From assembly GCA_951406725.2 (NCBI GenBank), contig OX597818.1:31372001-31436000 (forward strand): a stretch of 64,000 nucleotides of DNA, written 5' to 3'. Source of the DNA: Octopus vulgaris (lineage: Eukaryota). Position 1 is the stretch's first letter. Every line of letters begins with the position of its first letter. Made by a program: the position numbers and the translations under genes. Positions 501 to 53,265 of this stretch are shown here, one piece after another. The notes below the pieces were generated by a model. The model ran no database searches, was not told the DNA's origin, and saw nothing but the letters and a program-made list of their open reading frames with translations.

Positions 501-747
501 GATGTACGGGGCGCTTTTATGTATGTATAATGTATATACATTATGTATAATTATACACGCATATACATAATACACATGTGTCTGCGCGCAGTTGAGAGAT
601 TTTGTATACATAAATATTTATATAGATAACATACAAATATGTGCACAATATGTAGTATTAATTACACGCAAAAACTCACACGCACAGATATACATGTACG
701 TATATAGGCATATATGTGCTATACAGATATACACATGATTACAAATA

Positions 748-2017
748 TCAGGTCATCCCGTAAGTTCCGTCCGATTTTACCTTGTTTAAAATTGGATAAA
801 ATTTAATAGTATTTTACAATGTCTAATCGAATTAAAAATTATTTTTATGCATCTGTGTTCATTTAAACTAATTAAATACTATTTTACAGAATAATAGAAT
901 TAAAATTTCTTTGATTAAAACCCTTTCTAACATGGAAGTATCCAAACAACATTTGAGGCACATAATGCTTTATGAATACAAAAAACGAAACACTGCAGCT
1001 GAAGCGACTCGAAACATACACTCAGTTTATGGGAAAGAATGCTTGAATAAAAGAACTTGCAGAAGATGGTTTGCAAAATTCACAAGTGGAGATTTCAGCC
1101 TTGAAGATGAAGATCGAACAGGACGTCCAGTTGAGTTTGATGATAAGCTCCTTGAGGCATTACTTGAAGAAAATTCTGCATTATCAGTTGAAGAATTGGC
1201 AATAAAGCTTACTTTAAACCATCGTCATCTTCAACAATTTGGAAAGGTTCCTAAACTTGGAAAATGGGTGCCTCATGAATTGTTCGAAAGCAACCGCAAA
1301 TCCCGAGTCGACATCTGCTCTTGTCTCCATTCTCGCGAACTCATTTCACCATTTTTGGATAGACTTGTGACTGGTGACGAAAAATGGATCTTCTATCGAA
1401 ATGTTAAACGTCGTAAACAGTGGTTTGGTAAAAGGGAAAAGGCTCAACCACAACCGAGAAGTGAACTTCATGGGGAAAAGGTTCTTCTCTCTATCTGGTG
1501 GGATTGCAAAGGAGTAATTCACTTTGAATTATTACCACCTAATGCAATAATCAATGCTCAAGTCTACTTCCAGCAATTAGAGTGTTTCGAGCAAGCTTTG
1601 AAGAAAAAAACCCGCTTTAGCGAATCGAAAAGGAGTGATGTTTCATCAGGACAATGCGCGACCCAATGCAAAGATCCCATCACAGAGGATCGAAGAGCTT
1701 GGTTGGAAAAAATTCCCCATCCACCTTATTCTCCCGACCTTGCTCCTTCAGACTACCATTTGTTTCATTGTTCACAGAATCATTTGGGAGACATAACATT
1801 CGCAAGCCAGGAGGAGATGGAAACTGACATTTCAGAGTTCTTCGCTTTGAAACCAAAGGAGTTTTACATTGATGGGATTAAAAAGCTTGTAAATAGATGG
1901 AAAGAAGTCATAGATAATCAGGGAAAGTACATTGATGATTAAATTTTAATTAAATATAACATTTGATCACATGTTTTCTTTATTCAAAATTCGGACGTAA
2001 CTTATGGGATGACCTGA
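748..2017 (+). mobile_element. Full-length (1270 bp) mariner DNA transposon
   Basis: TIRs of about 31 bp (tcaggtcatcccgtaagttccgtccgatttt / aaaattcggacgtaacttatgggatgacctga), TA target duplications at 746-747 and 2018-2019, internal transposase. Confidence 0.97.
932..1942 (+). pseudogene. Mariner (DD34D-type) transposase, open but with a frameshifted central catalytic segment
   Basis: MEVSKQHLRH start, HTH region, WVPHEL, TGDEKW and HPPYSPDLAPSDYHLF are in frame, but GVMFHQDNARP (second catalytic Asp) lies in another frame at about 1604-1712. Confidence 0.9.
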
Positions 2018-2493
2018 TATATACATAATACGTATATGTATATACATAAGTAAAAAAGCATATATATATATATATATACATATATATATGAATATACACA
2101 CAGACACACACGCACACACACACACGCACACACACACACGCACACACACATAGTTGTATATATATACACGACGCACTCACCATCTCACACATACAAACAT
2201 ATATGTATGCATGTATATTTATGTGTATATGTAAGTATGTAGGTCTGCGCATGTATGAATGCATGTCTATAGAGACAAACTTATTTGCGTATATATATAA
2301 ATGATGTATGTAATATCCTTGCTGAAACTAATGGATGTAAGATGTTATACATTGTATATCATGTATTAGTCATTAAACAATAGGCCTGCATTGACCATAC
2401 GCTCACTATGCAATGACCTTAAAGTAACCATTATATCAAGATCTCACTTGGGGTCGTGGTTGTAGGGTTTCTAGACACTTACTTATGTCACCC

Positions 2494-2906
2494 TTACTCT
2501 TTTACTCTTTTACTCTTTTACTTGTTTTAGTCATTTGACTGCGGCCATGCTGGAGCACAGCCTTTAGTCGAACAAATCGACCCCAGAGCTTATTCTTCAT
2601 AAGCCTAGTACTTATTATATCGGTCTCTTTTGCCGAACCGCTAAACTACGTAGACATAAACACACCTGCATCGGTTGTCAAGCGATGTTGGTAGGGAGAC
2701 TAACACAGACACACAAGCATCTACAAACACATACATATACATATATATGCATGTACGACGGGCTTCTTCCAGTTTTCGTCTACCAAATCCACTCACTATA
2801 GCCGGCCCGAGGCTATAGTAGAAAATACTTGCCCAAGGTGCCACGCAGTGGGACTGAACCCGGGACCATGTGGTTGGTAAGCAAGCTACATACCACACAG
2901 CCACTC
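2494..2906 (-). mobile_element. SINE family A (tRNA-derived head, internal microsatellite, (gagtaaaa)n tail)
   Basis: Minus-strand head gagtggctgtgtggta...gggttcagtccc (A/B boxes), caccttgggcaag core, tail repeats; many homologous copies in the window. Confidence 0.9.
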
Positions 2907-3099
2907 AGTGTCTTTACGTATCTTTTGTTGTGTCTGGGGAGAGTCACTTTGTCTTTACGCCTTATTAACACATTCACTGGTTCGATTTCCACTCCGTTTA
3001 TATATTTATTTATATTTTGACTAAGTCCGTTGTCGGATCTGCGTTCCTTTTGTTTGTTTCTGTGGACATGTGTCTGCGTCAGCGTGCATGCGTTTACAC

Positions 3100-3100
<1 letters not shown>

Positions 3101-3130
<30 letters not shown>

Positions 3131-3631
3131 TGTATGTATGTATGTATGTATGTATGTATGTATGTATGTATGTATGTATGTATGTATGTATGTATGTATG
3201 TATGTATGTATGCATGCATGTATGTGTGTGTGGTGTATGTGTGTATGTGCGTGCATGTGTTTATCTGTCCGTATTACCTACGTACTTATCTATCTACCTA
3301 CTTGTGTATCTATCTGTTTACCTATACATCCATGTACCTACCTATAAATATATATTATATTATATGCATTTCTATTGTTTTTTTTTTATATAGCCACGGC
3401 ACTATTGCTCGAATGAATACACAGTCAGATACAGGCAGAACAACATACAAACACGCATACATACATACATACATACATACATACATACATAGATACATAG
3501 ATACATACATACATACATACATACATACATACATAAATACATACACACACTCACACATATATATACGTATATATATATATGTATATATACATATATATAC
3601 ACATATATATGTATATGTATGTATATATATA

Positions 3632-3686
<55 letters not shown>

Positions 3687-3703
3687 ATATACACATATAT
3701 AGA

Positions 3704-3782
<79 letters not shown>

Positions 3783-3877
3783 GCATATATATATATACAT
3801 GGTAGATGGGGCCAAATAATTGTAGTGATCAATAAACTTTCTCGTATCTTCCAAGTTCAGTCTCTCTTATTAATCAA

Positions 3878-3951
<74 letters not shown>

Positions 3952-3980
3952 TTACACACACACATATATATATATATAAT
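3101..3980. repeat. Microsatellite block (TATG)n, (CATA)n, (TA)n, (GA)n
   Basis: Directly visible tandem repeats. Confidence 0.95.
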
Positions 3981-4169
3981 TTATACAGAGAGCTAAAATG
4001 CCCGTGTATGCATGTAAGCATAAATTCGCACATTCATGTATACACATGCCAATATATATTCATCTATATATACTCGCATGCAAACATATTTGATAGTCTG
4101 AAACTTAACCGTCTGATGACACATCCTTTCGTTCCTGCATAAAAGGGAAAACAAAATTTATCATCAGGA

Positions 4170-5130
4170 ATACCTCATCGTTGCTATTTTTTGACAGTAT
4201 CTCTGCTGACAGAATCGAACGCTTTGGTTAAATACAGTTCAGGACTTTTCTCACGAATTTTACCCGCACATTGACGAAGTGAAAAGACATTTTTCCCCAA
4301 TCTTTTAAGAATTAGCCTTGCCAGAATTTTACTTGCGACACACCGGAGTGAGATGCCACGTGAGTTATCACAGAAAAAATTCTCTTGTTCTTGAAGAGGT
4401 GCTTGATGGATGCATTCTTGTTTCTCTGGGGTACACGCATAACTCTCCAGATGACTTCTAAGAGCTGAAAGAGCTTTTGCGCCAACTTTTTACTCTCATA
4501 TTTGAATATTTGGGGTAGTATGCCATCCTTGTCATGGGTTTTGATAATATTTGCTTTATGGCATATTGCCTTATGATTGACGATAGAGTTTGAATTACAA
4601 GGCTCCTTCTTTGGCAAAGAATACAAATTCAAGTCTAAGAAGTGTGACCATCAGAAGACAGATTGGAGATGAACCATTTTCCACGGAAAACGGGGCACGG
4701 GGTAAAATCCTTTTTGAAATCTTCATAGAAACCTTTTTAAGTTCTTGCTTGCTGTTTCCTGGAATTCAGCAGCTTTAGATGACCAAGATTCCATCATTCT
4801 TTTAAGGGCAGTTTGCGTCTGCTTCTCTCATTCCTTGTATGCATGGTTTTTGATATCGGATTGTTTATCATTGACCCACGTCTTGTGTGGGCTATACATC
4901 GTTTTGATAAACTGTTCAATATTTGTTGCGGTCAACAAACCAATCCTGATGGATCTGCACAGGTAATGTTTCTCTTCGATAGTTGCAAGTTCAGAACTTG
5001 AACTTCAAGAACAAAATTGGCAGTAAGAGAAATGTGATGAAGAAGAACTGGATGTCGTGGTTAGTGTAAAGCCTGAAGGTGCAGTAGTTAAAAGCGAGTC
5101 GTGAGATTTGGCTGTTATTTCCAATAGGAC
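4170..5130 (-). mobile_element. Degenerate RTE-clade LINE fragment (linker and RT N-terminal half)
   Basis: Minus-strand translation DKDGILPQIFKY...IWRVMRVPQRNKNASIKHLFKNK and LTKAFDSVSR resembles non-LTR RT domains 0-3 of RTE elements; stops and frameshifts present. Confidence 0.8.
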
Positions 5131-5216
5131 GAGCGTCGTGTACAAGTACGTTTGTTGTATGTGGTCTGAATACACGCGCACAAATACACACGCAAATACA
5201 CACACATGCACACACA

Positions 5217-5264
<48 letters not shown>

Positions 5265-5648
5265 TACACACACACACAAACACACACACACAGAGTAGTG
5301 GGTGCATATACAGTGATTACATTTTTGACGATATGGTCAGTTTATCATCATACCTATCTCATTATTTCCTTGACATGAAGCTCTGTAAAAGTGAAAAAGC
5401 TGTTTTTTTTTTGTTGTTTTTCATTGAGAGAGAAGTACTGTTACCACAATTATTCTAAGTTTCATCGTCTTCATTAGAAGTGTTTTCACTGGCAGTTTTG
5501 TTAAGAAGCGAATCTTTTTAGTTAAATACAATACAACTTGACTCTTAACACTATTTACATTATGATGCCTTTCTGAAGCCAATAGCTTTCGACGCGTTTG
5601 CCAAAGTGCCAACCTTAGTAATTGCTGTTTATTTATCTATACCTTACC

Positions 5649-5988
5649 GTGGTATTCGTTGCTCAGCTAAGATGTATACAGACAACAGGCGTTTGTTGTG
5701 TGTGTGTTTTATATCTGTTTTTATTTTTTTTTTTGCTTTTAGTTTCTGGAATTTTTATTTATACATTTATTTGTTTACTCTACTCAGTCAGTGCAAAGAG
5801 CTGTTTCAAATGGTCCTTCAATTTTAGTATCAAATAACAAAGAGGAAGAGGTTGGTATCCAGCGAATTTTGGAACCGGGGTAAAGCCAGGTGGAAGGTGT
5901 CATTTTATCAGTAGCATATTTTTCAAAGAGAGGGTTAGAGAGAGAGAGAGAGAGAGAGAGAGTGAGTTGATGAGGAAAGGAGAGATTT

Positions 5989-6026
<38 letters not shown>

Positions 6027-6150
6027 GAAGATTTGAAGAGGGAAGAAGAGGTTTCAAAAGAGATAGAGAAATGAAGAGAGAGGGAGAGAGTGAGAGGGAG
6101 AGAGAGAGCTAGAGCATGTGTAGAAAGAGAGAGATTAGGGTGTGACTGAC
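5649..6150 (-). promoter_or_regulatory. Possible first non-coding exon and core promoter of a minus-strand gene (speculative)
   Basis: Inr-like TCAGTC near 6148 (-), (CT)n-rich leader, non-repetitive segment ending at a strong donor ACG/GTAAGG at 5649; no coding support. Confidence 0.2.
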
Positions 6151-8354
6151 AGGCTCATAATGATTTCTTAACAGACGCATGGCTTGTGATATCTAACGAA
6201 AAGATCCGGTTTCAATACACTCTTGAAGCCATTTTCACTTTATTAACATTGCTTATGTCATTCAAAAAGCATAACAAAAATATCACATTCTTTTATCCCT
6301 AATAAATTGAGTCGTGTGTCCAATCACAGTATCGATGATGAATATTTAAAACTAAAAACAATAATAATTCGAATGTTGTGACCAATACAACAACAATGAA
6401 AATATTCTGTGCTTATAGGGAATACAATTCGCTTTTAAGTTTCAAGTCCCGTTTTACTTTTCTGTCTTTGAATAAAAATGGTGGATCGCTTTAAGACAGA
6501 CATTCCATAGATATGTTTAAGTGGATGGATAGCTGGTTGCTTTAATACCATGATATTAGAGATTCTTTCCTTCACAAGAATGCACTGACAACATTTTGAT
6601 CGAAGCGTGTGTCTCATAAAGTCCTCCAACTCACTAGCCTACAGCTAAGAAGTAATGGGAAACCACTTGTGTATAAGTATATATATATATATATACGTAT
6701 ATGTGTGCGTATGTGCACGCGTGCGTATATATGTGTATGTGTGTGTGTGTGGTCGCGCATGTGTATATGTGCAGTACACACATATTTTCATTATATATAT
6801 ATGAGTTTGTATGTGCATTTATATACATGCATATATATATATATATATGCATATATAATATATATATTATACTTATATATATATATGTGTGTGTGTGTAT
6901 GTATGTATATATATAATATAAGTATAATATATATATTATATATGCATATATATATATATAGCAGTAAATACATACAGACATACACACACATACATATTTC
7001 TACATACATATCCATACATGTATCTACATGTATGTGTGTGTATACATATTATATATACATATATCTCTACATATATGCACACATATACATATGGTTATGT
7101 ATGTTCGTATGTATGTTTATAAGTTTGTTGGGGAGATAATATGAGGGATAAGAAAATACAATGTCGAAAGAAATAGAGCAAGGTTTTATTATTTTATTGC
7201 CTGATTTTTTTCTCTTCTCATTTAATGATTTTTCTTTTGTTTTCTTCTATATCATCTAAAAAAAAAATAGGGGGGCTTTTTTCTATTAAGTTTCACAAGG
7301 AAATTGGGTGTTTAATCAGGGTGTTCCTTCTACAAATATATATATGACCTGACCAAGTGCCTTCTACTGCCTAGCAGCAAAATAGACTGGGAAAAAAAAA
7401 TAAATGAAATAGACCCATTCACACAATTGCTTAGAAGACGACGGAAAGAAAGGAGAAGTATAATAATAATTTTGCTTGTCGTCTTGATAAAACTTCTGGT
7501 AGCAGAGAGACTAATGGAGCGTTCGTTTATGTAGCTCCCCTTTTTTTTTTATTTCTATGTTATATATATTTATATTTATATGCATTTTAGGGTTTCTTTT
7601 TTTTTTTTTTTTGTATGTCATGGACGTAGAAGTTACTGAGGCAAAGTAAGGGGAACAGAAATTACTTGTTAAGCCAGGCGAGAAAAACGGATGTCGGAAA
7701 GTGATTGAGATAAAAGAGAGTCGGGAGGAGAAATTTCAGTAACTTCGAAGTAAATTGAGCCTAGAAGTTAAAATAAAAACAAAACCAAACATAAGAGAAT
7801 ATGTCGATGTATGGGTACGATTTTAGGGTATCTAAAGAGGTAGAAGTAACAAGAATAAATAGATGAAAGATTACTTTGGCGTTAAACAAACCAGTCGAAA
7901 CAAAATGCTTAGGCATTTTGTTTCTTTTTTTTTTGTTAGTTGCCTATTTTTGTTTTGTTTTGCTTTGTTTTACGTTGTTCTGGAATAGATTCTTTGTTTT
8001 ATTATATTTTTGCCCGTTTATTATGATATTTGCTTGCTTTTTATTTTATGATTTATTTATTTATTTATTTATTTAGCTTCTTGAGAGAAGTGTTCTTCAT
8101 TTTCTGAAATAATGTCCAACAACACTCATCATACGGGAACAAAACGCAAATGACACACTACACGTACGTACAGATACATATATACAGATTCATACACACG
8201 CGCGAGTGCACACACACACACACACACACACTCACTCACACACACACGCACACAAATATATACATATGTTTTGATTATTGCTCTATTATGGCAAGTATTT
8301 GCCACAATAACTTAAATGACCACCAGCGTCAAAGCTCCTGATATTGCATTTGCT

Positions 8355-8388
8355 TATAACAATAACAATAACAACAACAACAACAATG

Positions 8389-8444
<56 letters not shown>

Positions 8445-8522
8445 TATGATGATGATAATGATGATGATGAGTATAATTATGATGAGTATAATGATGATGA
8501 TGATGATATGATGATAATGATC
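8355..8522. repeat. (AAC)/(AAT)/(GAT) trinucleotide microsatellite
   Basis: Directly visible. Confidence 0.95.
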
Positions 8523-8569
8523 CGAAAATAGCAAGGGTAATTGGAATTTGAAACGATTCCTGTCATGAG

Positions 8570-8710
8570 AGGCGAATTGACAGCGTTTACAGTGTCGGTG
8601 GGGGCGGGAGGAATACTTTTCGTTATTTTTTCCGATTCCTTGCGTTATGAGTTCGAATACCGACGAGATCCTCTTTCGCTCTCATCCATTTCGACGTCGA
8701 TAAAAAAATT
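8570..8710 (+). mobile_element. Degenerate SINE family B
   Basis: cgttatgagttcgaatacc...ctctcatccatttcgacgtcgataaaa resembles the family B consensus. Confidence 0.5.
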
Positions 8711-9173
8711 TTAAAAAGTGCCTTTCTAAGATGATGGAATTGTGAGAAAGATACACCGGATGCTTTGCGGTATTTCTTCCTGGTCTCTGCCTTTTTTCGT
8801 TGGTGACTTAACTCCTTTGACCGATTTAACACAAGCAACTGGCACCATCAGTAAGTTTAACTGAGTTTGCAGTTGGATTTAGTTGAGTTATAAGCAGTGG
8901 AGTTAGTTTTCAGGTTAAAGAGTATCTTACCGTCTCCCACCAAATTGGGAGAATTTACACAAAAAGATAAAAAAGTATATGCATTAAAATTATAAATACA
9001 GAGACGTAATATTTCATTGACATCATTGTAATCATTCATAGATATAACAAAACAATTCATTCATCACTGATACACGCGATAATGCACTCATAAATACATT
9101 GCTATATGTTTCTATGCATAGGCACATGTATGTATGTATGTATTATGCATGCATTCATACATGTATTATGTAT

Positions 9174-9346
9174 GTAGGGAGAGTTTACGAAAAAAACAAA
9201 AGACGAAGACAGGTGGTGTACAAAACAAACAGGAATATAACGCTCAGGAATAGAAAAAGTGTTTTACGTTTCGAGCCTACGCTCTTCTACAGAAAGGAAC
9301 ACAGAAAAAACAAGGAGAGAAAAAAATGTGTGTAGTGGCTAACGAT
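9174..9346 (-). mobile_element. Penelope-like pseudo-LTR fragment with a variant minimal hammerhead motif (9262-9295)
   Basis: Minus strand TTT-CTGTAGA-A-GAGC-GTAG-GCTC-GAAACGTA-AAA; homologous to 57724-57872. Confidence 0.6.
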
Positions 9347-9401
9347 GTACGTATGTACGTATGTATGTATGGATGTATGTATATAAGTGTGCATATACTT
9401 A

Positions 9402-9695
9402 AACTTAGGTACAAAGACACTCTGGAAAATAACTTCAAATGGAGCGGCATTAGAACTCGAAGCCTTTGCCGCAGACAGATCAGTGTGGAGGTCTCTCACC
9501 TCACGAGAAGAAGAAGCCTTCGAAGAGTGCTACAAGAGAAAGACGTCACAGGGCAAAATCAGGCTCAATCCAGACAACAGACTATCGTTGTAACATGTGG
9601 GCGCCTGTGTGCCTTCAGCTTTGAACTGCGGAATCACATGCACTTCCACCGCTGAGAACTCATGCTTTGTTGTCATCGGACATCGATGGACTGCT
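9402..9695 (+). mobile_element. RTE-clade LINE 3' end
   Basis: LRYKDTL...ADRSVWRS...AFEE...CGRLC...NHMHFHR* (terminal C2H2-like motif) and a short 3' UTR ending gtcatcggacatcgatggactgc. Confidence 0.8.
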
Positions 9696-10549
9696 TACCT
9701 CGTATGTACGTATGTATGTATGTATGTATGTATGTATGTATGTATGTATGTATGTATGTATGTATGTATGTATGTTTCATGAGCTGCATATAGACTTTAT
9801 ATTCTATATATTCCTCATGAAATAATCATCCCTGCCTGGATTTACTAGATTTCAACTGCATAGGGCTCTACATTACACCCCGCTAAGTATTGGTTTAGAT
9901 AGCTTGGTCCACTAAAGGAACTTTTTTGTGATTACTGCCGGATTAGATAATTCTATATATTGTGTATTAAATTTACATGCATATGTGTGTGTGCGTGTAT
10001 GCATGTCAACTAGTTGATGAAATTAGGAATAAACGTCCTTGCAATGTGATTACGCTGAGAAATGTAGATTCAGTTGAAGAAAATCACTATCTTACAGAAA
10101 TTTTGAATTCACTAAATATGAGTTGTCTGTCTTCTCACATCATAAAATTCAAGACGGGATGTTAATAATGGCTTCTCTGAAGCTTTAACCTCAGAAATGA
10201 CCACTGTAATAATACTTGATACACGGTCCTCAACGCTACTGACAATTTAGTTACTGGTCGTCAGCAAGTTTAGCGCGTTGACGATGCGAGAGTGTTAATG
10301 ATTCCTGGGATTTCTCTTCACTGCCTAGCACCAACTTATCATTCACTGCAATTTCCTATAAACTTTGCTTTTATTATGTCGATAAGCATGAGTCAATGGC
10401 AAAGTTTAAAGAGGTACGGAGAAACTCCAGTGTTCTCAGACAAATAAACAATTATATGATACTACCATCAAAACGGGCGATCCAACGAATTTGAAAATAA
10501 TTTCAGATCAAAGAGAATTGACTCGCACACTCACAGAAAGACACATGAT

Positions 10550-10910
10550 ATTGGTTTCAAATTTTGACACAAAGCCAGCAAATTCACGGGAGGGTGCCGC
10601 TAAACATTTTGCCTGGTCGGAATGCCGAGGTCGAATTTGACTTTTATCTTTCGAGTCGTTAAAATAAGTACCAGTTGAGCAGTGGGGAAATGTAATCGAC
10701 TTTACACCTCCCCGTAAATTGCTGGCCTTGTACCAAAATTTGAAACCAGTGTTAAAGAGTAGGTTCTAGAATGCATTTAGCATTTTGATGTGGATTATAT
10801 CAACACCAGTCTTCAATTGGTACTTATTTTATCGAACGAAACGATGAAAAGCTAAGTCGGCCTCTGCAGAATCTGAATTTGCCCAACATGTTAACTTTCC
10901 TGCCATAAAT
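10550..10910. mobile_element. Cluster of SINE family B fragments in both orientations
   Basis: gccgaggtcgaatttg...aagtaccag (+) flanked by minus-strand pieces (ggtttcaaattttgacacaaagccagc; tggtacttattttatcga). Confidence 0.75.
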
Positions 10911-10989
10911 AGATTTGTTTTAGAAAATGCACTAGATCAACCCTTAAAGAGTGGAAAATTAAGAACATTAATATTACTCTTGATAAGAA

Positions 10990-13256
10990 ACTTAGATAAG
11001 AGATGGCGACCAAACACAGACAAGCGTTGAAATCAATGATCTAGAGAATGTACAACACACGCAAGTGAAAAAGACCAAGGAAAAATATTATGGATGTGTT
11101 AAATTGATACTTAAATCATAGCTAAATAGAAAAAAAGTTAAGTAAAAGGCATAAACAATAAGAGCTATCCCGAAATATGAAGAAACGTATAACATTCTCA
11201 GTTGGATGCTGAACGAACTAGCAAGATTAGAAAGGCGAGAGAAAAAAAAACAGAATCCACCACCCTAAATCTCATATAGAAAGATTATATTTCTTATGAA
11301 TACTGAGTAGAAGAGCCGAAGGCAAGTAGAAAACTGTTATAAAATATCTACGGGACTACAAAAATATCATGGAGAATTACTATAAATATCTACACGACAT
11401 AATCGAAGGAGAAAAATATTTCTATTTTCAACGAAAGCATCAACTGTAAAAGATAAAGCTCAAATGACAGTCGGTTATAAAGAATATGGAGAAAGCACAA
11501 AAGAAATTGTGAAAAGGCTAAAATCTAAGCTAAAACTGGGCGAAAAAATGCTAAGAAAATCTATAGAAATAAAAACCTCGACATAACCAAAACAGGAAAA
11601 TGCTGAAATGAAAGGAAGTAGAGTAAGAAAATTTGCACCACTGGTAGAGAAGTACATGACTCGGAACTGAGACTGAAGGAGTTTTGGATGCAGTAATCAC
11701 CAAACCTATATAAACTTTTCTCCTCTATGCACAAAGCCCGAAATTTTTAGAGAGGGGCCCAGTCGTTTAGATCGACCCCAGTACGCAACTGGTACATAAT
11801 TTATTGACCACGAAAGGATGAAAGGCAAAGTCGACCTCGGTGGAATTTGAACTGAGAACGTAAAGACAGGCGAGATACCGTTAAGCATTTCACTGGCGCG
11901 CTAACGTTTCTTATTGCCCACAAGGGGTTAAACATAGAGGGGACAAACACGGACAGACAAAGGGATTAAGTCGATTACATCGACTGCAGTGTATAACTGG
12001 TACTTAATTTATCGAACCCAAAAGGAGGAAAGGCAAAATCGACCTCGGCGGAATTTGAACTCAGAACGTATCGGCAGACGAAATACCGCTAAGCATTTCG
12101 CCCGGTGTGCTAACGATTCTGCCAGCTCGCCGCCTTACCAAAAGTATATAATGAATCAGAGTACAGTACTACAAAACTTATACAGATGAGGAAGAAAAAA
12201 CTACCGCATTTAATAGGAAATAAGACGTACTTATTCTCTATCCAAAATGCCTAAAACAATCAGCTTCTTCTTGCTGAGTTGGGCCTATATTACATGTTTT
12301 AGTGCCCCTGAATAAGATTGATGTGCATCTAATGTGCCCAAGAGTTTTCTATGCCATCAAATACAGCAGCTAAATTATTTCTGACTGTCCATTCTTAGCC
12401 AGAAAGAATATAATAGTTCATGGACGACAGAGTTGGGACTTTAAAAAATTGGTCTTATGGGAGTGTATGAAATATTAATGTGAATGATAACGGGATCATA
12501 TTTTAGATACACATCAGGGCAGAGATATCAAACCTAATCGACCAGATATTGTTGTAAAGGATCACCAAGAGAAAAATAGCCTCTAATCGGAGAGTCTCAT
12601 GCGGCATCTAGTGAGAAATTATCCAAGTACAAAGATCTGAGAACAACAATAACCCGAATAAGGGGTCTAAAAAATCCTTATTAAAACTGGTGCCTTCGGA
12701 ATGATAAATTATGGAGCAACACATACTTAACAAAACGCCAGGATTTATATACATGCACAACATACAGAAGATAACAATGCTAGGCACCTCACACAGGCTC
12801 GGCAAGTTTGTTTCATTACACTAAAAACCAACAAAAACAAAATACAACAAACACCCAAAGCACTCCTGATGCACGTGGTAGTACAGTTAAATAGTGCATC
12901 CCAATTAATACGCAATACCAAGAAGTGGCTCTCATGGCTTCTGATCTCAAGGAATTCGAAATGTTAACATGTACATGATTTGTTTTGGTGTAAATGTTGG
13001 GCTGCAGAAAAATTTTCTGCTCAATACCACAGATTTGCTTGTCAGTTGCTTGATACTTACTTAACTAGTTGAACGTATCCCTTACCGGCGGACGATGTGT
13101 GCCTCTCTGCTCAGGAACAGAAGTAGTAGGGAAGCATCATAGCCATGTGTTGAGAGGGATTCTTTGATATGTGAGTAATTCACCCATGGAAAAGTGAGCG
13201 TTTCGTTCAAGTCTTATACAGACACCTTTTCATGCCATGCGATGCTCTCTAACTCA
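10990..13256 (+). mobile_element. Degenerate R4/Dong-type (RLE) LINE, interrupted by SINE B, ending in (TAA)n
   Basis: Remnant motifs HHPKSHIERLY, ETEG, NRPDIVVKD, EKLSKYKDL, IQKITMLGTSH; 3' UTR homologous to 13400-13936. Confidence 0.7.
11714..12137 (-). mobile_element. Tandem/dimeric SINE family B
   Basis: Two consecutive copies of the gaaaggatgaaaggcaaagtcgacctcggcggaatttgaactcag core with different tails. Confidence 0.9.
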
Positions 13257-20914: not shown

Positions 20915-21301
20915 TCTTTATATATAAAAGTGAGGTTGTGTGCTGTCTGTCTCCTACGATTTAGATTCCTAACTACTCCCACATTTTGCGGTGCAGTTTA
21001 ACCAAAACCGGGTATCTTATAGTCGTGATTCATATCGAGCCCATCTGGGTATTAGCGCGCGTCTACGATGAGTCTACGATTTAAAAAAAAATTACCATCA
21101 TTCTTTTCCATTTTAATGCATTTTTTCGCTATTATATAAGGGAAGTAACTCTCTAAAAATGTCTACGATGAGTCAACCATTTAAAAAAAATTTACCATAA
21201 TTTTTTTCCCATTATTTTGCTATTTTTTGGCTATAACTCTGTAAAAATGCTTATATAGTTATTTCCCTTACAAACCCGAGCAACGCCGGGCGATACTACT
21301 A

Positions 21302-21302
<1 letters not shown>
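20915..21302 (+). mobile_element. Non-autonomous Helitron (388 bp)
   Basis: A|TC 5' end, 3' hairpin cccgagc-aac-gccggg about 8 nt before CTAG|T, inserted between A and T in a (TA)n tract with no TSD; internal duplication of gtctacgatgagtc. Confidence 0.85.
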
Positions 21303-21351
<49 letters not shown>

Positions 21352-21824
21352 GAAATTATTTTCACACTGGCGACTGCCATGATTCAGCGCAAAACGAAAC
21401 AGTTGCAGCGCAGACTTCAACATGAAGGGTTGGGACTCTCTATCATAGTAACGCGTACTGAAGAAGGTGAAGCTATTATGCCAGTCCAGAACCGGTCCAC
21501 CTGAGACCAAATACTTGAATGTATGCTGAGAAATTGTCTTAGACGGTTTATCTTCGGACGGTTGATTTCTGTAGTTATTATCAGTAGCTTTTTGAAAAAG
21601 AGTTTTGACTGTTATTTTCAGCAGGTAGACATACCTAGTATGTCCTTTGATTAATTTAAATCCTTCTGCTATTTAATGTTTTTTTGGGGACCTGCAATCA
21701 CCTATATTGTTGATTGATTCTGTTATTATCATTTTAAAATTGTTACACTAGATAATAAGAGGGTCAATGTTATCTTCACAAATTATTTTTTCTCGTGAAT
21801 TATTTGCTCCGTATATATATATAG

Positions 21825-22085
21825 GATGTTTGGAAAACTCATATGTGTTTTGGCTGATGAGTACGGGACACTTGTATTTGCTGCAATATTTGCAGCTTTT
21901 AATAAAGCTGTTCTTCGTATGAAACAATTGTACTGAAAAACTAATTCATTCTTGTTGCTTTTTTCTTGTTTATAATCACCCCACATTATTTTATGGCAAA
22001 TACCCTATAGATTTCTGGTGCATCTAAGTTAAGTACCGCATTCATGTGAATTCATTGGAACTCACTTGAATCTTAATTGCTTTTA
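21825..22085 (+). mobile_element. Penelope-like pseudo-LTR copy 1 (direct repeat of 23945-24205)
   Basis: About 260 bp colinear, highly similar repeat carrying a hammerhead; flanked by (TA)n. Confidence 0.7.
21848..21938 (+). ncRNA. Type I hammerhead ribozyme (copy 1, wobble-weakened)
   Basis: TTTTGG-CTGATGA-GTACG[50 nt hairpin]CGTAT-GAAAC-AATT-GTA/CTGAAA; core intact, G-U pairs in stems I and II. Confidence 0.7.
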
Positions 22086-22377
22086 TATATATATTTATAT
22101 ATATAAGAAAGAAAACTTTACAAGGAAATTTAATGTTGGGGAATGATAATCGAATGTGTACTATATAAACTCAATGCATGCATCGTAAAATAACCAGCAA
22201 TGAAGTACTCTTTATATGTTATATCCCAGACAAGTAGTAGAAGCGATTTTGCTCGGCGTCGGACCAACTCTGAGCAACTGAGTACTGAATACTTCTTTAA
22301 ATAGGAATATTTCCAGCTTCACAGCCTGCAATTATCCAAGCTATGTTGTATGATATGTATTCTAGCTTTACAGAGTG

Positions 22378-22592
22378 AAGGCGCGTGACTTAGTGCTTAG
22401 GAGTGTTAGATTCGCGATCGTAAGACTGTGGTTTCGATTCCTGGACCGGGCGACACGTCGTGTTCTTGAGGAAAAAACACTTCTTTCCAGTGTTGCTGCT
22501 GTCCACTCAGATGGCAAAAATGAGTAATCCTGCAACGGACTGGCATGGAAACCAGGAAACCAGCCCTTATGAGTCGGCATGACTCGAAGTTT
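22378..22592 (+). mobile_element. Older tRNA-derived SINE (related to family C tail 3)
   Basis: A/B boxes (gtgacttagtg; ggtttcgattcc), gtgttcttgag, tail gaaaccaggaaaccagcccttatgagtc. Confidence 0.7.
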
Positions 22593-22762
22593 CTTTATCT
22601 AACTTTACAGAACCGTCCTTGTAAGAGAGACTACGAGATGAGAACAAACGACTGCATAGCAATGTTCTACGGAAAACTATAGACACAAACGTTTGTATCT
22701 GTTCAGAAAGACATCGCTGCATGATTTTGAATATCGCTTAAAAATCATGTCGTTTCGAGTTA

Positions 22763-22947
22763 CCGTATTTTAACGAGTATAAGGAACCCTCGTGTATAAG
22801 AAACCCCTTAATTTTGGGGGCTTAAAATTTGGAAAAAAGATTTTGTAAGGGATTATAATACTATCCATGTATAAGAAACTCCCATATTTTTTAAACCTAA
22901 TTTTTGACAAAAAAGGGAGGGGGTTCCTTATACACGTTTAAATACGG
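22763..22947. mobile_element. MITE (Tc1/mariner-pogo type), 185 bp
   Basis: TIRs of about 27 bp (ccgtattttaacgagtataaggaaccc / gggttccttatacacgtttaaatacgg), TA TSDs at 22761-62 and 22948-49, internal repeats of gtataagaaac. Confidence 0.9.
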
Positions 22948-23268
22948 TACATCGTACTTGACTAGTCTCAGTTTTCGCTTTGTACTTCAAGATGTGAGAA
23001 ACAGAAAGAACTCAGAATATATATTCTTGAAATATTTTACTAATTCCAGTCATTAAATTGCGGCACTGCCTTGCCTCTATCAACAGGAGTCGTTATTTTA
23101 TCGACGTACTTATAACAGTGGGACAAAACAAAATTAATTAACGATAATTAAACTCGTAAGCCAGTGAAAAAGTCATTAGTTTGATGGATTGAAGATTAAT
23201 TATGCTTTGGATGAACAAGGGTAACGATTCTGAAATCCAGTATTTCTCCGATACACACATACTATATA

Positions 23269-23299
<31 letters not shown>

Positions 23300-23506
23300 A
23301 CATATATATGTATATGTGTGTGCATGTCTGTTTTGAGTATATATATATTTATATATATAGTTATGTTATATTCCGTTAGTAACGGGGTAGAGTACAGTAC
23401 GAAGCACGTTGACCCTCAAAATTACCCAATACTATCCGATAGCAGTATTATATGCTTATACTTCTACATTTTTGTTTGGGTATTCGTCGTTGACACCAAT
23501 TTCTTC

Positions 23507-23587
<81 letters not shown>

Positions 23588-23671
23588 GGTCCCGGGTTGA
23601 TTCGGGGTTAACCACAGTAAATAAGGTACTCAATACATAGCAGAGTAAAATTAATTTATTATATAGAAGGA

Positions 23672-23720
23672 GCTTCTACAGGACTAGAACTGTTTCATTC
23701 AAGAGAAATCTTCAGGAAGC
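23672..23720 (-). ncRNA. Type I hammerhead ribozyme-like motif (left arm of fold-back)
   Basis: Minus strand GCTTC-CTGAAGA-TTTCTCTTGAAT-GAAACAG-TTCTAGTC-CTGTA/GAAGC. Confidence 0.55.
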
Positions 23721-23722
23721 AC

Positions 23723-23779
23723 AGGAGCTTCCTGAAGATTTCTCTTGAATGAAACAGTTCTAGTCCTGTAGAAGCTCCT
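23723..23779 (+). ncRNA. Type I hammerhead ribozyme-like motif (right arm of fold-back)
   Basis: AGGAGCTTC-CTGAAGA-TTTC-TCTT-GAAT-GAAACAG-TTCTAGTC-CTGTA/GAAGCTCCT: 9-bp stem I, 4-bp stem III, non-canonical U-U at the base of stem II. Confidence 0.65.
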
Positions 23780-23787
23780 TCTATATA

Positions 23788-23844
<57 letters not shown>

Positions 23845-23944
23845 ACTGTGCAACATTAAGGAACTTTGGAAGTCCATTTATTTTCTAAATCTGATTTTTA
23901 TAGAACTATCCCTGATGTTTCAGAAGTGTAGCCTCACCCCCTTA

Positions 23945-24203
23945 GATATTTTGAGAACTCAGATGCTTTTTCGGCTGATGAGTACGGGTCACTTGTATTT
24001 GCTGCAATATTTGCAGCCTTAATAAAGGTGGTCTTCGTACGAAACAATTGTACCGAAATATTGACCCATTTTTGTTGCTTTTTTCTTGTTTATAATCACC
24101 CCGCATTATCTTATGGTTAATACCATATAGATTTCTGGTGCATCTAAGTTAAGTACCGCATTCATGTGAATTCAACAGAACTCACTTGAATCTTAATCGC
24201 TTT

Positions 24204-24205
<2 letters not shown>
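23945..24205 (+). mobile_element. Penelope-like pseudo-LTR copy 2
   Basis: Direct repeat of 21825-22085, followed by (TA)n; may extend upstream to about 23840. Confidence 0.7.
23969..24058 (+). ncRNA. Type I hammerhead ribozyme (copy 2, canonical core and pairing)
   Basis: TTTCGG-CTGATGA-GTACG[49 nt hairpin incl. GCTGCAA/TTGCAGC]CGTAC-GAAAC-AATT-GTA/CCGAAA; predicted cleavage after 24052. Confidence 0.85.
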
Positions 24206-24252
<47 letters not shown>

Positions 24253-24687
24253 GTAACATATGGTGTTTGCTTTTGCATGGCAATATATAACAATTGCTTA
24301 ATATTAAATTGAAGAATTCCTCGGGATGTTTTAAGTAGAAAACATTGTTTTACAACGAAAAGTTAGAGAATGACTGCGAAGTTTCAATTTACAAGCTGTT
24401 ATTACGCTGATACACACAAACACACACAAACACATGAGTCTGATGAAGGCGAGTAAGTCACGTCCAACTCTTTTCTTGTAAATGTTTAGTAAAATTTTAT
24501 GTTTGTGTGTGTATGTGTGTGTGTGCGTGCATGTGTATGAGTGTGTGTGTGTGAATGCGTATGTTAACTTCTATTACAAATATCTATATCGTGTTTAAAT
24601 ACTTAGAATACCTTCAGGAATAACACTAAATAAATATTATTTCAAATTATACCAACTTATTCTCTCTCTTTCTCTCTCTCTCTCTCT

Positions 24688-24767
<80 letters not shown>

Positions 24768-28207: not shown

Positions 28208-29340
28208 ACACACACACACACACACACACAGACACACAAACACACACACACATACACACACACACAGACACACACACAGACACACAAATACACACACATA
28301 CACACACACGCGCACACGCACAGTCACACACACAAACACACACACACAAAAACGCACACACATATACACGCACAAATACACACACATACACGCACGTACG
28401 CAGACACTCACACGCAAGCACGCACATATACACGCATGCGCACGTGTATCAAGTCCGAATAGTTATACATTTCATTGCCTGTACGTACTCACCATTTTTA
28501 TGAAGACACTTAAATGTACACACATACGCACACACGCACGCACGCACGCACACACACTCACACACACATCACACAGAGGCTGAATTGATTACTTTCACAT
28601 ATAATTGATGGGTTGCAAATTAGATAATAGCAAAACATGGAACATCATTCAACATACATTGTTTACTTAAAGTCGTTTACAGACATGTAAAGCAGTGGGA
28701 AGGCTGCCGCTCTGCTTTGATCGTTCCAAGAGATGTCTTCGCAGAATCGAGACCTTGCAGTTTTCGTTTGCCGCGAAGTAATATAATTATAAATGTATCT
28801 ATTGGTCCCTGGCTGCTGTGAAGATATGATGCTTAGCTTGAGTTTCATGCCGTTAAGCAAATCAAATTTTAATTGCCCCTACAAAACCTCGATATAACCC
28901 AATCCTCGATACCCGGTATGTTATCCCTAGTAATTTGGTACCTGCTATCTGTTGACAGTAAGCGTTTTGAATGCCATGTACACATCAGATAAGTATATTT
29001 AAACCGATTGTAAGTACCGGGAAATCCTTCGGTATTGGTAGACAGCATCATTCATCTGCATGACCTTTTCTTATGGGAAGTGTAGGCTGAAAAAGAGGGG
29101 GATTGACGTCGTCTCCTCCTACCGACACTCTATATCAATACCAAAGGATCTCCAAGAACCATTCTACACGCACATACATACACACATACATACATGCATG
29201 CACTCACTCATCCATCCATCCATCCATCCATTCATGCATACATACATGTATACATACATGTATACATACATGCATACATACATACATATACATACATACA
29301 TACATACATACATACATACATACATGCATACATACATACA

Positions 29341-30770
29341 ACCTCTCTGCATTTAATAAAATAGTGGCCCACAATGTGTTTGTAGTGCCAGTACTCATAC
29401 CAACACTTGGGCTAATTAATTGGACGCTTGATGAGATCCGAGCCATTGATGTGAAAACCCGAAAAATACTAACAAGCAAACATAATTTTAACATAAACAG
29501 TGACGTAGACCGCCTCTACCTAAAGCGAAAACAATGTGACGGAGGTTTAACATCGGAAACATCTTTTAACCTCCAAGTGTCGAAGTGCATCCCTTGACCA
29601 AGTTTGCATACACGAGGCTGATGACATCATAAGACTTGGAAGGCAGCTCCTTGAGCAACACTCTTTGTCTAAAAACCTAGAGTACATGCCCAAAGAAGTC
29701 GCTCGATTCTACCGCAATGTTTCATCAGATGAAAGGATGAGTCTATATAAGCAGAAGACTATGCATGGATATGTTACTAGAAAGCTCCGTGGTGATAGTA
29801 ACATCGATCACTAATGCAGTTTATCATGGACTAATAGCTGGATTACTACCTTTCACTTTGAAAGGTATGCGTTCGCAATCCAGGAACAGGAAATAGCAAC
29901 CAAGTACCTGATGCACAAAAGGGATAAAGATGCTGGAAAAACCGTAAAATGTGACAACCGGTGCAGTCTTTGTGGAGTTCACATTGAAGATATTACACAC
30001 ATCATAAGCAGTTTGTCCGAAAATGTCATCACAGTAATATCTACCGATGAGGCATGACGTTGTAGCTAGGAGACGCTATAATGAAATCTGTCGGAAGGAT
30101 AATCCCGAGGACAAAGAAATAAGAACACACGATATGGTAGAAGCCATAGCTACTCATAATAAAAAGGAATAGTGGTGAATGTACCAGTGAAGACCTTGAT
30201 AAAATGTAAGCACAACATACCTGATATAATTATTATGGATAGAGAAGAGAAACTGCGCACAATTGTTGAAATTAGCTACCCAACGGATGTTGACATAAAG
30301 CTGGAGAGAAAAACTTATGCTGAACTATTGAGAAATCTTCAGTTACTCTATCCAGATTACAAGTTCAGGTTAATACCTGTAATTATTGGGGTCCTGGGAT
30401 ACTGAACACACTGCCTAAATACCAATCTTGACAAATTAGGCTTCTCAAAACCAGAAAGGAGAAAGCTAATTCGAAGACTACAGATCCAATCCATCACTGG
30501 AACTGTAAAAAATCTGTAGAACTTTCCAGAAATTTATCATTTAAGTATAAATGAGAATGTCTATATATGCAACTATATGCATGAGAATACATACCTAAAA
30601 CATACAAATCTGCACATACATACATACATACATACATACATACATACATACATACATACATACATACATACATACATACATACCCTGTTGTTGATGTTGA
30701 AATTCCAATGAAGGTTAGAAACCGGTTCTTTCTCTATTGGCAATAAATCTTGAAATAAACTGAATAATGA
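29341..30770 (+). mobile_element. 5'-truncated R4-like (RLE) LINE flanked by (CATA)n
   Basis: NKIVAHN...WTLDEIRAIDVKTRK...SDVDRLY, MHG, AIQEQEIAT, CSLC...HI..CP zinc knuckle, RHDVV, PDIII...EIS RLE motif; several stops and frameshifts. Confidence 0.9.
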
Positions 30771-40018: not shown

Positions 40019-40391
40019 GTGGAGGCGCAATGGCCAAGTGGTTAGGGCAGTGGATTCGCGATCGTAGGATCGCGGTTTCGATTCCCAGACCGGGCGGTGT
40101 AAGTGTTTATTGAGTGAAAATACCTAAGGCTCCACGAGGCTCCAGCAGGGGGCGGAGTGAACCCTGCTGTACTCTTTCACCACAACTTTCTCTCACTCTT
40201 TCTTCCAATTTCTGTTATACCTGTATTTCAAAGATTCAGCCTTGTCACTCTGCATCACGCTGAATCTCCCCGAGAACTACGTTAAGAGTGTCTGTGGAAT
40301 GCTCAGCCACTTGCACGTTACTTTCACAAGCTGGCTGTTCCGTTGATCGGATCAACTGGGGCCCTCGTGGTCGCAACCGACGGAGTGCCAC
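40019..40391 (+). mobile_element. SINE family C, tail type 1
   Basis: Colinear with 18238-18624. Confidence 0.9.
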
Positions 40392-40860: not shown

Positions 40861-41246
40861 AACGATTTCATGACAGTGACTGAACATGGTCAAGGATGTT
40901 TCTATTTAAGTAAGACCACGGCCTAGATACTACAACAGCATTGATTATAGTGTTAGTTGCTCTATGTAGAGCGTAAGAAATACTTGAGGACCACAGTATT
41001 TTCTAAACCTGAAGAGGAAGGTTAATGTTTGTAACATGGTCGTTCTATGTTGAACTCTTGCGTTCGATAGAAGATTTTGCTTCCAATTTTCTTCCAATAT
41101 TACGTGCGTACGTAAGTATAGAATGTTTGCTATTATATATATACATTACACAGACACACACAGACACACACAGACACACACACAGACACACACACACACA
41201 TATATATATGTATATATATATATGTATATATATATATATGTATATA

Positions 41247-41313
<67 letters not shown>

Positions 41314-41316
<3 letters not shown>

Positions 41317-41512
41317 AAGTTAATCCAAACATGAAAACACAAAGAGAAAACAACAACGCGAGGACGTGGAACAAATATAGTATAATTGGACGCTCAGGAA
41401 GAAAGGGAAGAAGGAGGGTTTAACGTTTCGAGCGGAGCTCTTCGTCAGAAACATAGGAAAAGGAAAGATCCAGAGAAGGGAAGACGGAGGAAAAAAATCG
41501 CCAACGGTACAC
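41314..41512 (-). mobile_element. Penelope-like pseudo-LTR fragment
   Basis: Contains a minimal hammerhead; homologous to 49908-50092; abuts (TA)n. Confidence 0.65.
41418..41452 (-). ncRNA. Ultra-minimal type I hammerhead motif
   Basis: Minus strand GTTT-CTGACGA-A-GAGC-TCC-GCTC-GAAACGTT/AAAC; stem III is only the palindrome ACGT, so it could form only as a dimer. Confidence 0.6.
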
Positions 41513-46190: not shown

Positions 46191-46937
46191 ATTGCAATAC
46201 GATGAACATAAGGTGCCAAGTGAGCCACTTTTGGTAAACAGAAATGATGATGTAGGATGAACCGAACATCCAGCTAAGGTGCCCCACGCTACCTTACGTA
46301 GACACTGTATTCCTGACTACTTTATCTAACTAGTCTTTCGAGTTTTTGAGGCGGTATGTGGTAGTTTAATGGCGAATTGGCTGTTATTTCTAGCAAGAAA
46401 ATCAACTGCATTGAGGTGCCTCTGCTGGGTCAAATTATTTTTATTTTTTATTTGTATTTGTGTTCGTTATGAATCTTCTGATATGATGTATTGTTTCGGA
46501 CGTAAACATTCCTCAAAAACAAGACCTTGTCTTTCTTTTATACTTTTTATATTTGATCTGGTTTCTGTCAATGATCCACAACAACGTGCGCGGCTCTTTC
46601 ATCTGTTTCCCTCTAGAGTATAGCCGCCCGCTAATACTTTCTTCTGGTACATGATTTATCGTACAACAGCTAAGGCAACTTCAGAGCAGAGAGACGTGAA
46701 CGAGACCTCATCAAATTTCACTATTTCTTACCGACACTCAGAAATACACACATGTATATACATACATACATACACATGCACATATATATAATGCAAGGAT
46801 GCACTTATTGATGGTAGTCTGATAAAGTGCAGCTCATAAACTGCGTAACTTTTCACATGAAATCACTTCTGTACAACAAAATGGAGCGGTATCGAAACAT
46901 TTGTAACTAATAATAAAGATGTCCTGACCTCAATCTT

Positions 46938-51648: not shown

Positions 51649-52896
51649 ACATACACACACACATCCTCATTTCGGATTCCCCACTCTTTTTTTTTTATTT
51701 GTCCTCAAATAAATAAACCTAGCAAACGGTCGGAATAAACAGTGGCACGCTGAAGGGTCCAATTAGAGTTTATTTGTTCAACATCAGGCTAAGATGTCAA
51801 GGGGCTTCTATCACTCTCTCTCTCTTTTCCTCTCTCTCCTCCCCTTTCTCTCTCTTTCTCTTTCAGCCTTGTTCTTTCATTTTCCCTTAAATCTTCTCTC
51901 ATTCATAGCTTCTTATTTCTTCCCTTTCAATTCACTATTACTCCTTCTTCTTCTCTATTCCCCTTTTCCTCTTGCTTTACCTTTCTTCTTGGTCCCAGTC
52001 ATTCTCACATATATTCCCTGCAATTCACTATTCACGATTCTCTCGATCTCCTCTTCTCTCTCTACACTCCAAGAACACCCACTCGATATCTCTATTTCCC
52101 TCCATTCTACATCTCATCTTTCTCCTCTACCTGTTCTTTCTGTACCTTTATTTCACTATGTTACATAACGGTTCTCTTTTGTCAGATTCCAAATGTATAT
52201 TGAGTACATTGAGGTTTCTTAGTTTATCGAACTAAACGTTTTAATGAATCGTCGACAAGCTATCATCCACTTAGTAATGTAGTTCGTATGTATGGAGCAT
52301 TCTCCAAAGGTACACTTCTTACAAATGGCAGCAGATCATTACATAACTGGTTGGGTCTTAAGTGCATCACAAAAGTATTTATCTTTATTTGTTATATTTA
52401 GAGAAAGGAAACTTATTGTGAGTTCGTACCTCTCAAGATGCAAACGGATAAACTCAGTTTTCAAAGACAAAAGAAAAACAAGATATTGAAAATTACAAGA
52501 AAATACTCGTTAACTTTACCATAGTGTCATTGCTTACATTTGTGATTAGTTCACATAGTATGATTAGATGGGTTTTTTTTTATCTAATGGAACTGAAAAT
52601 CTATTGTTTGCAGGATACGAACTGTCAACTGGTAAAGTTAGTGACCACTAAGTCATTAACGAGTTTTTGTAAAGGAATTACAAACAAGGTATTTCTACAT
52701 GGTTGTTCAGCCTGATAGCAATGGCAGCCAAATCTCCCTCAAGATGACATTCTTCATGAAAAAGTAGGTGCATACTGCACAATTTGGCCCGTGATTTATA
52801 AAACAGATTTGGATCAAGGATCAGTCACATTTATTCAATTGGCTGCTCTACTGGAATTGACGCGAGCTTTTAACAATAACAGTAGCAGCAACAACA

Positions 52897-53265
52897 GTGG
52901 AGGCGCAATGGCCCAGTGGTTAGGGCAGCGGACTCGCGGTCGGAGGATCGCGGTTTCGATTCCCAGACCTGGCGTTGTGTGTGTTTATTGAGCGAAAACA
53001 AAGCTCCACGAGGTTCCGGCAGGGGAGGTGGTGGCAATCCATGTTGTACTCTTTCGCTCCAACTTTCTCTCACTCTTTCTTTCTGTTTCTTGTCCCCGAC
53101 TTCCTACGCAACTGCTGAGCCTGGATGCGCATTCATCCATCCGTCGATGCTCTCGGTGTCGGGGGTTGACCTGCTTTCTCTTCTGCGGGTCTTACGAATA
53201 ACAAAGGACCACGTTTCGGACTTCTCCCATCTTGCGAGCTCTGGGACAAAGACCGTTCGCTCAAC
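52897..53265 (+). mobile_element. SINE family C, tail type 4, with 13-bp TSD
   Basis: Family C head; TSD agcagcaacaaca at 52884-52896 and 53266-53278. Confidence 0.9.

Follow-up and report, generated by a model that had tools for sequence, protein, structure and literature searches.

We analyzed a window of 64,000 nucleotides from Octopus vulgaris (contig OX597818.1, positions 31,372,001 to 31,436,000 of the forward strand), within which all coordinates below are numbered. Two copies of a repeat, here called family A, lie in it in direct orientation with a start-to-start spacing of 2120 nt. Alignment of copy 1 (21825–22105) with copy 2 (23945–24226) gives 89% identity over 283 nt, TA tail included, in agreement with a first-pass annotation of this DNA that had described two direct repeats of about 260 bp set 2120 nt apart. 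Copy 1 (21824–22085, plus strand) is a 5'-truncated, decayed hammerhead-bearing repeat with TA runs on either side (21812–21823 and 22084–22105). Copy 2 (23842–24206, plus strand) has a longer 5' side and is bounded by TA runs at 23792–23839 and 24207–24249. Both copies end in (TA)n and copy 1 is flanked by it on both sides, so that the earlier statement that both abut (TA)n stands to this extent; it does not hold for the 5' side of copy 2, where the aligned repeat begins ~100 bp after the upstream (TA)n. Of the stretch in between, a minimum of ~25 nt at its 3' end resembles family sequence found in loose contig ends (see below), and 23842–23920 probably belongs to copy 2. A 3'-terminal stem-loop is predicted at 24148–24197 (plus strand; 22028–22077 in copy 1), with the same stem in both copies and a differing apical loop. 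The two copies diverge at 8 of 91 positions in the ribozyme, close to the 16 of 148 in the 3' part.

With a descriptor applied to the whole window on either strand, we identified one type I hammerhead in each copy, built as stem I (6 pairs)-CUGAUGA-stem II-GAAA-C-AAUU-G-UA-stem I'. Motif 1 (21848–21938, plus strand) has its CUGAUGA core at 21854 (C3), a stem II domain of 60 nt (21861–21920) and a predicted cut after 21932. Motif 2 (23969–24058, plus strand) has C3 at 23975, G10.1-C11.1, a 59-nt stem II domain with 24 predicted pairs, a 2-bp stem III with an AAUU loop, and a predicted cut after 24052. The predicted cuts are 2120 nt apart and lie 152 and 155 nt from the TA run in the two copies. 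The type I core (C3-U4-G5-A6-N7-G8-A9, G12-A13-A14, A15.1-U16.1 and H17) is intact in copies 1 and 2, with no core change between them, and both copies display three helices with an open stem I: a 6-bp stem I, a long stem II and a 2-bp stem III. The complete cores and 6-bp stems confirm the annotated type I hammerhead in each repeat. The description of copy 2 as fully canonical applies to its core and not to its stem II, which was rightly noted as unusually long: the GUACG...CGUAY insert measures 50 nt in copy 1 and 49 nt in copy 2, and the 59–60-nt domain folds as a single rod.

The rod is more stable than expected from composition in both copies (z −4.61 with 0 of 200 shuffles as good in copy 2; z −3.34 with 1 of 200 in copy 1). 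When each copy is folded alone, the hammerhead fold comes within 1.3 kcal/mol of the minimum free energy for copy 2 and within 5.0 kcal/mol for copy 1; in sequence context it lies 12–13 kcal/mol above the free ensemble for copy 1 versus 6–7 kcal/mol for copy 2. The copy 1 hammerhead is thus predicted to misfold. Relative to copy 2, one of its pairs is broken and three are G-U wobbles, 10.1-11.1 among them. Comparison of the 32 predicted pairs shows 27 identical, three kept by a change on one side, one kept by changes on both sides, and one broken. Of the four changes that keep a pair, three are C-to-T at CpG and need no more than decay to arise, so that the two copies by themselves are weak evidence of selection. 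Motifs as strong as these two did not occur in 60 Markov-resampled 64-kb windows, and motifs of any strength occurred at 0.08 per resampled window compared to five observed.

The palindromic stem III favors pairing between molecules, with a calculated −6.4 kcal/mol for the dimer duplex through ACAAUUGU versus +2.4 kcal/mol for the monomer hairpin. This is consistent with the earlier assignment of the motifs to the Penelope/retrozyme type, in which dimers can form through stem III. A loop I–loop II tertiary contact of the usual kind is unlikely in this model, because the apical loop II would sit 24 pairs away from the core. We also considered an ORF starting at the AUG within the core, as in one Anolis Penelope-like element (PLE), and discarded it, as the frame in copy 2 closes after 14 codons.

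The Rfam hammerhead search that had been proposed as a check matched neither copy. No hammerhead reached the gathering score anywhere in the window, and none was among the 43 Rfam matches down to E = 10 in 21300–24700; the long stem II is the likely cause of the miss. A pattern specific to family A had no match in viral contigs and none in metagenome contigs. A relaxed pattern matched 18 metagenome loci, none with both stems and the best with three stem II pairs, and we regard these as chance matches. ARAGORN returned no tRNA genes. The literature that we searched held no description of family A, and a motif search of it returned unrelated papers only; Repbase, Dfam and bioRxiv supplements lay outside that search and may already annotate the family.

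To place the repeat in a genomic setting, we aligned contigs of four public runs (X1, X2, X4 and X13) to 21350–22370 at 80% likeness. X1, X2 and X4 are DNA-like runs from three coded organisms, and X13 is, by our guess, RNA. The depth ratio of the unit to the spacer ranged over 661–11,608 (X1), 882–7,609 (X2) and 765–7,976 (X4); as summed depth is not copy number, these ratios give an order of magnitude, namely thousands-fold. The spacer at 22117–22370 is covered by one long contig in each DNA-like run, is single-copy, and is orthologous in two other coded organisms with five differences; these 254 bases are the depth-tested part of a spacer of ~1,860. Contig depth collapses at the TA run at 22085. 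Because the unit lies thousands-fold in depth above the single-copy tested spacer, what is repeated is the unit, as a high-copy dispersed family, and not a 2.1-kb element made up of the pair. Upstream of 21822, all four runs display high depth and loose ends, with median loose-end lengths of 20–51 nt in the DNA-like runs and 115–142 nt in X13, where one loose end continues into a TA tail. Beyond the 5' end of copy 1 the family continues, with two or more versions, one of which resembles ~23920–23945 upstream of copy 2. As these loose ends continue the family beyond 21822, copy 1 is 5'-truncated. Family A contigs are present in X13 and carry no strand, end or locus information, and X13 does not cover 22085–22370, which has no weight on expression either way.

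The family contigs also place the two copies relative to one another. At four sites copy 1 departs from the family majority and copy 2 carries the majority letter. At 21852, 22038 and 22039 both copies share a minority letter, the majority letter accounting for 59–87% in the DNA-like runs, which indicates that copies 1 and 2 belong to one subfamily; a common burst or a re-insertion nearby would explain this pattern no less well than chance. With U21934, the majority A at 21852 could form a pair where copy 2 has G-C, which suggests a compensatory change in stem I, although 21934 falls outside the 40 variant rows listed of 266. No head-to-tail joint of family A was present among the 15 joints listed of 87.

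The DNA around the copies is a nest of insertions. The spacer holds an old SINE-like insertion (22375–22600, plus strand, 3' end approximate) with matches of 72–78% at 40019–40096 and 52896–52974, whose head we take to be of the tRNA type with A/B-box-like elements, and a MITE (22761–22949) with 29-bp TIRs (93%), both as annotated earlier, as well as several microsatellites. Further along, family C (23586–23795) is an inverted pair of a different type I hammerhead flanked by TA runs, with cores at 23732 (plus strand) and 23715 (minus strand) and predicted cuts after 23770 and 23677. These hammerheads have a 4-bp stem III and a U-U at the stem II base, and together they form a long palindrome (23652–23795), similar to an arrangement reported for PLEs, in which 5'-truncated copies are inverted. 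Within this hairpin both ribozymes are predicted to be locked, at a penalty of 78 kcal/mol. Scores for a mir-3199-like Rfam family at 23680–23767 were below the gathering score and reflect the palindrome.

Immediately upstream of copy 1, which sits at its TA tail, lies family B (21352–21814, plus strand), a separate high-copy unit of 463 bp with a depth of 75–3,400-fold and a degenerate minimal hammerhead at 21452–21503. The latter shows an apparent A-A mismatch at the stem II base; the core and stem I agree with family letters at 21457, 21462 and 21501 and with an A inserted after 21489. Head-to-tail joints (21814 to 21352/21353) occur in all four runs, including the presumed RNA run. The degenerate motif and the two family C cores add to the hammerheads that the first-pass annotation had recorded.

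Several further elements were seen in the window. An intact minimal hammerhead (41310–41456, minus strand) has its core at 41448, is predicted to cut after 41422 and precedes a TA run by 113 nt. It is faced across a microsatellite by a CUGAAGA half core at 41009–41075 (plus strand), in which an intact second half is absent and folding is unconvincing; this is possibly a decayed hammerhead of another family. A hammerhead-like core with one mismatch, a 68-nt spacer and a similar stem III at 46811–46914 (plus strand) may be a chance match or a distant long-stem relative. All six hammerhead-like motifs in the window, which are not six independent events, lie 22–315 nt upstream of a TA run, compared to 30% of random positions within 320 nt. 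An element at 20990–21302 (plus strand) with an internal 74-bp duplication terminates in a GC-rich hairpin, CTAG and then (TA)n, an end that we presume to be like that of a non-autonomous Helitron. About 150 bp between microsatellites at 23360–23510 (plus strand), with a long TA run at the end and no other copy in the window, is possibly another retroelement tail. A mariner transposase frame of the Mos1 type (872–1942, plus strand), open over 356 aa between stops, matches Pfam Transposase_1 and HTH_48, and its nearest database protein is 83% identical. Fragments at 4184–4650 (minus strand) and 29091–29597 (plus strand) have no Pfam match at E ≤ 0.05 and read, in our judgment, like non-LTR retrotransposon proteins. 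The suggested linkage to RT or GIY-YIG reading frames was not borne out at the locus: Pfam searches of 28 of the 64 local ORFs of at least 35 aa gave no match to either domain at E ≤ 0.05, the remaining ORFs being mainly low-complexity, short or flanking.

The closest look-alikes of family A are PLEs of the Hydra clade, elements with (TA)n as their insertion site and with similar hammerheads in sense orientation close to the 3' end (Craig et al. 2021, PMC8557442 Files S1/S2). In the same files several of these hammerheads carry CUGANGAG...CGAAACA..UGUA, and the clade includes Hydra-1_Obim of Octopus bimaculoides (PMC8557442). As described there, their hammerheads share with family A a type I fold in sense orientation a few hundred nucleotides from the 3' end, (TA)n insertion, a similar core context and a palindromic stem III. 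They differ in the stem II domain, which is ~12–26 nt in the listed Hydra elements and 59–60 nt with 24 predicted pairs in family A, and the family A sequence differs from the Hydra-1_Obim motif. Family A resembles the Hydra clade by motif, and no RT/GIY-YIG ORF was found linked to it at this locus. PLE pseudo-LTR hammerheads (min-HHRs), as reported by Cervera and de la Peña (2014, PMC4209133), likewise are mostly solo copies with a short palindromic stem III, a helix II longer than canonical and a dimer model for cleavage; their helix II is 6–8 bp, usually with an extra base after A9, whereas family A lacks that base and has a rod about three times as long. Long arms have precedent in the PMC8557442 supplement. 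PLE-X1_sMoe of Selaginella has a domain II of ~53 nt, and the “HHR_half_core” Naiads have core halves 35–50 nt apart, although these lineages are unrelated to family A and PLE-X1_sMoe is marked there as deviating from the canonical structure. Naiad_Ovul was rejected as a parent of family A, since its 3' end is not homologous by eye and a motif search was negative. Five short motifs from the window were absent from the PLE consensus supplement (PMC8557442).

Animal non-LTR retrozymes (PMC7229834; 10.64898/2026.07.22.740005) are described as sharing with family A a non-coding unit of a few hundred nucleotides, low GC, a type I hammerhead and high copy number. In these accounts they form head-to-tail tandem units and circles of 170–400 nt; the family A pair is not tandem, and its spacer is single-copy where depth was measured. 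Family B fits this tandem layout better and is the better non-LTR retrozyme candidate. Two-base-pair stems with tetraloops are typical of invertebrate hammerheads, and most cleave efficiently in retrozymes according to PMC7229834. Plant-type LTR retrozymes carry type III hammerheads in their LTRs, unlike the type I motifs found here.

We consider it probable that copies 1 and 2 are 3' ends, each truncated on its 5' side and separate in origin, of a Penelope-like element that targets (TA)n, or of a non-autonomous derivative. Family A has a sense hammerhead near its 3' end followed by (TA)n, as Hydra-clade 3' ends do, and, like PLE tails, it is dispersed, 5'-truncated and high-copy; an ORF with RT and GIY-YIG domains, which would mark a PLE, was not found between the two repeats among the 28 local ORFs searched. 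Solo motifs predominate among the PLE hammerheads surveyed in PMC4209133, and most PLE insertions are reported to be 5'-truncated with one terminal repeat (10.64898/2026.07.22.740005). The motif, the repeat family, the depth contrast, the truncation of copy 1 and the TA ends are observed, and from them we infer the Penelope-like origin, the targeting, the independence of the two insertions and any cleavage. The RT/GIY-YIG protein of the parent element would nick (TA)n and start copying the RNA close to its 3' end; early termination, the usual outcome, would leave tails of 260–370 bp with the hammerhead ~150 nt from the end. Two tails likely came to lie 2.1 kb apart because the TA-rich DNA here attracts insertions of this kind. 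Cleavage of the parent RNA would follow GUA and be weak in the monomer, and tandem copies would be expected to cut better as a dimer through ACAAUUGU. At this locus the folding models suggest that copy 2 may cut if transcribed and that copy 1 is likely impaired. For 1,000–10,000 copies in an assumed genome of 2–3 Gb, chance alone would place 0.4–53 pairs on the same strand within 2120 nt of each other, and two tails of one family 2.1 kb apart would be expected now and then. A single burst or a local re-insertion would also be compatible with the minority letters that both copies have. Independent insertions, which the first-pass annotation had offered as an equally plausible reading, are supported, and the high-copy unit and the single-copy part of the spacer that was depth-tested make them the better reading, not an equal one.

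A different reading makes family A a self-standing, non-autonomous retrozyme or SINE-like element, with a short hammerhead RNA mobilized by PLE proteins in trans, the two copies being monomer insertions. The short unit, its thousands-fold depth and the family contigs in X13 are compatible with this, as are the monomeric retrozyme derivatives reported to be common (10.64898/2026.07.22.740005) and the head-to-tail units formed by the neighboring family B. We nevertheless regard it as unlikely: the 5' ends of the copies differ and the family continues upstream in at least two versions, as truncated tails would, and the joints listed include none that is head-to-tail for family A.

The excision of a 2120-nt RNA was the proposal of the first-pass annotation, in which the two hammerheads of one plus-strand transcript meet through ACAAUUGU, cut after 21932 and 24052, and release an RNA that is circularised. 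The geometry is suited to it, with both motifs on the same strand, complete cores, a spacing of exactly 2120 nt and a dimer duplex more stable than the monomer stem III; in Schistosoma, PLE ORFs lie between hammerheads separated by ~3 kb (PMC4209133), and the family C ribozyme within the spacer, predicted to be locked in its palindrome, need not destroy the RNA. The support does not extend beyond geometry, and we judge the circle very improbable. The unit is high-copy while the tested part of the spacer is single-copy, the spacer is made up of unrelated insertions and gave no RT or endonuclease match in the ORFs searched, the (TA)n ends are separate for each copy, and copy 1 is predicted to misfold. 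Precedent points the same way: animal non-LTR retrozyme circles are given as ~170–400 nt and arise from tandem units (PMC7229834), eight of nine genomic Xenopus dimers tested were reported uncleaved (10.64898/2026.07.22.740005), and one Anolis PLE inserted in vitro without need for cleavage and, in the same report, had no RNA-seq reads starting or ending at the cut (PMC11167929). Finally, it is most improbable that a single old PLE insertion left the two copies as its pseudo-LTRs, or that they stem from a local duplication, with later insertions filling the place of a deleted body. Their direct orientation, a spacing near Hydra-clade element size (<3 kb, PMC8557442) and the minority letters common to both at three sites are set against a copy 1 with its own TA run followed by single-copy DNA orthologous in other organisms, the lack of an RT remnant in the 28 local ORFs searched with Pfam, and a copy 2 that, at 89%, is no closer to copy 1 than are most aligned contigs (families A and B mixed).

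Hammerheads in Penelope-like tails have been known since 2014, and the pair of separate tails is in itself ordinary. Within 2.9 kb, hammerhead tails of families A, B and C lie at TA runs, which makes this neighborhood a compact case of microsatellite-targeted nesting. If the circle existed, against long odds, chance neighbors would be creating a circular RNA out of host sequence. The novelty lies in the long, structured stem II, rare but with precedent, and copy 2 provides a ready construct for measuring the effect of a long stem II on monomer versus dimer cleavage. Because Rfam misses this stem II, yet the depth of the family is thousands-fold in three organisms, ribozyme surveys of such genomes likely undercount. 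More tentatively, and with more doubt than confidence on our part, family A could represent an overlooked class of animal retroelement hammerheads in which stem II has grown into a conserved ~60-nt domain that selection maintains in thousands of copies, over several related species, and that Rfam and short-spacer descriptors fail to see. If so, hammerhead counts in these genomes would be large underestimates, and the ~60-nt stem II would be a functional module, acting in RT binding, as a folding switch or as a tertiary dock.
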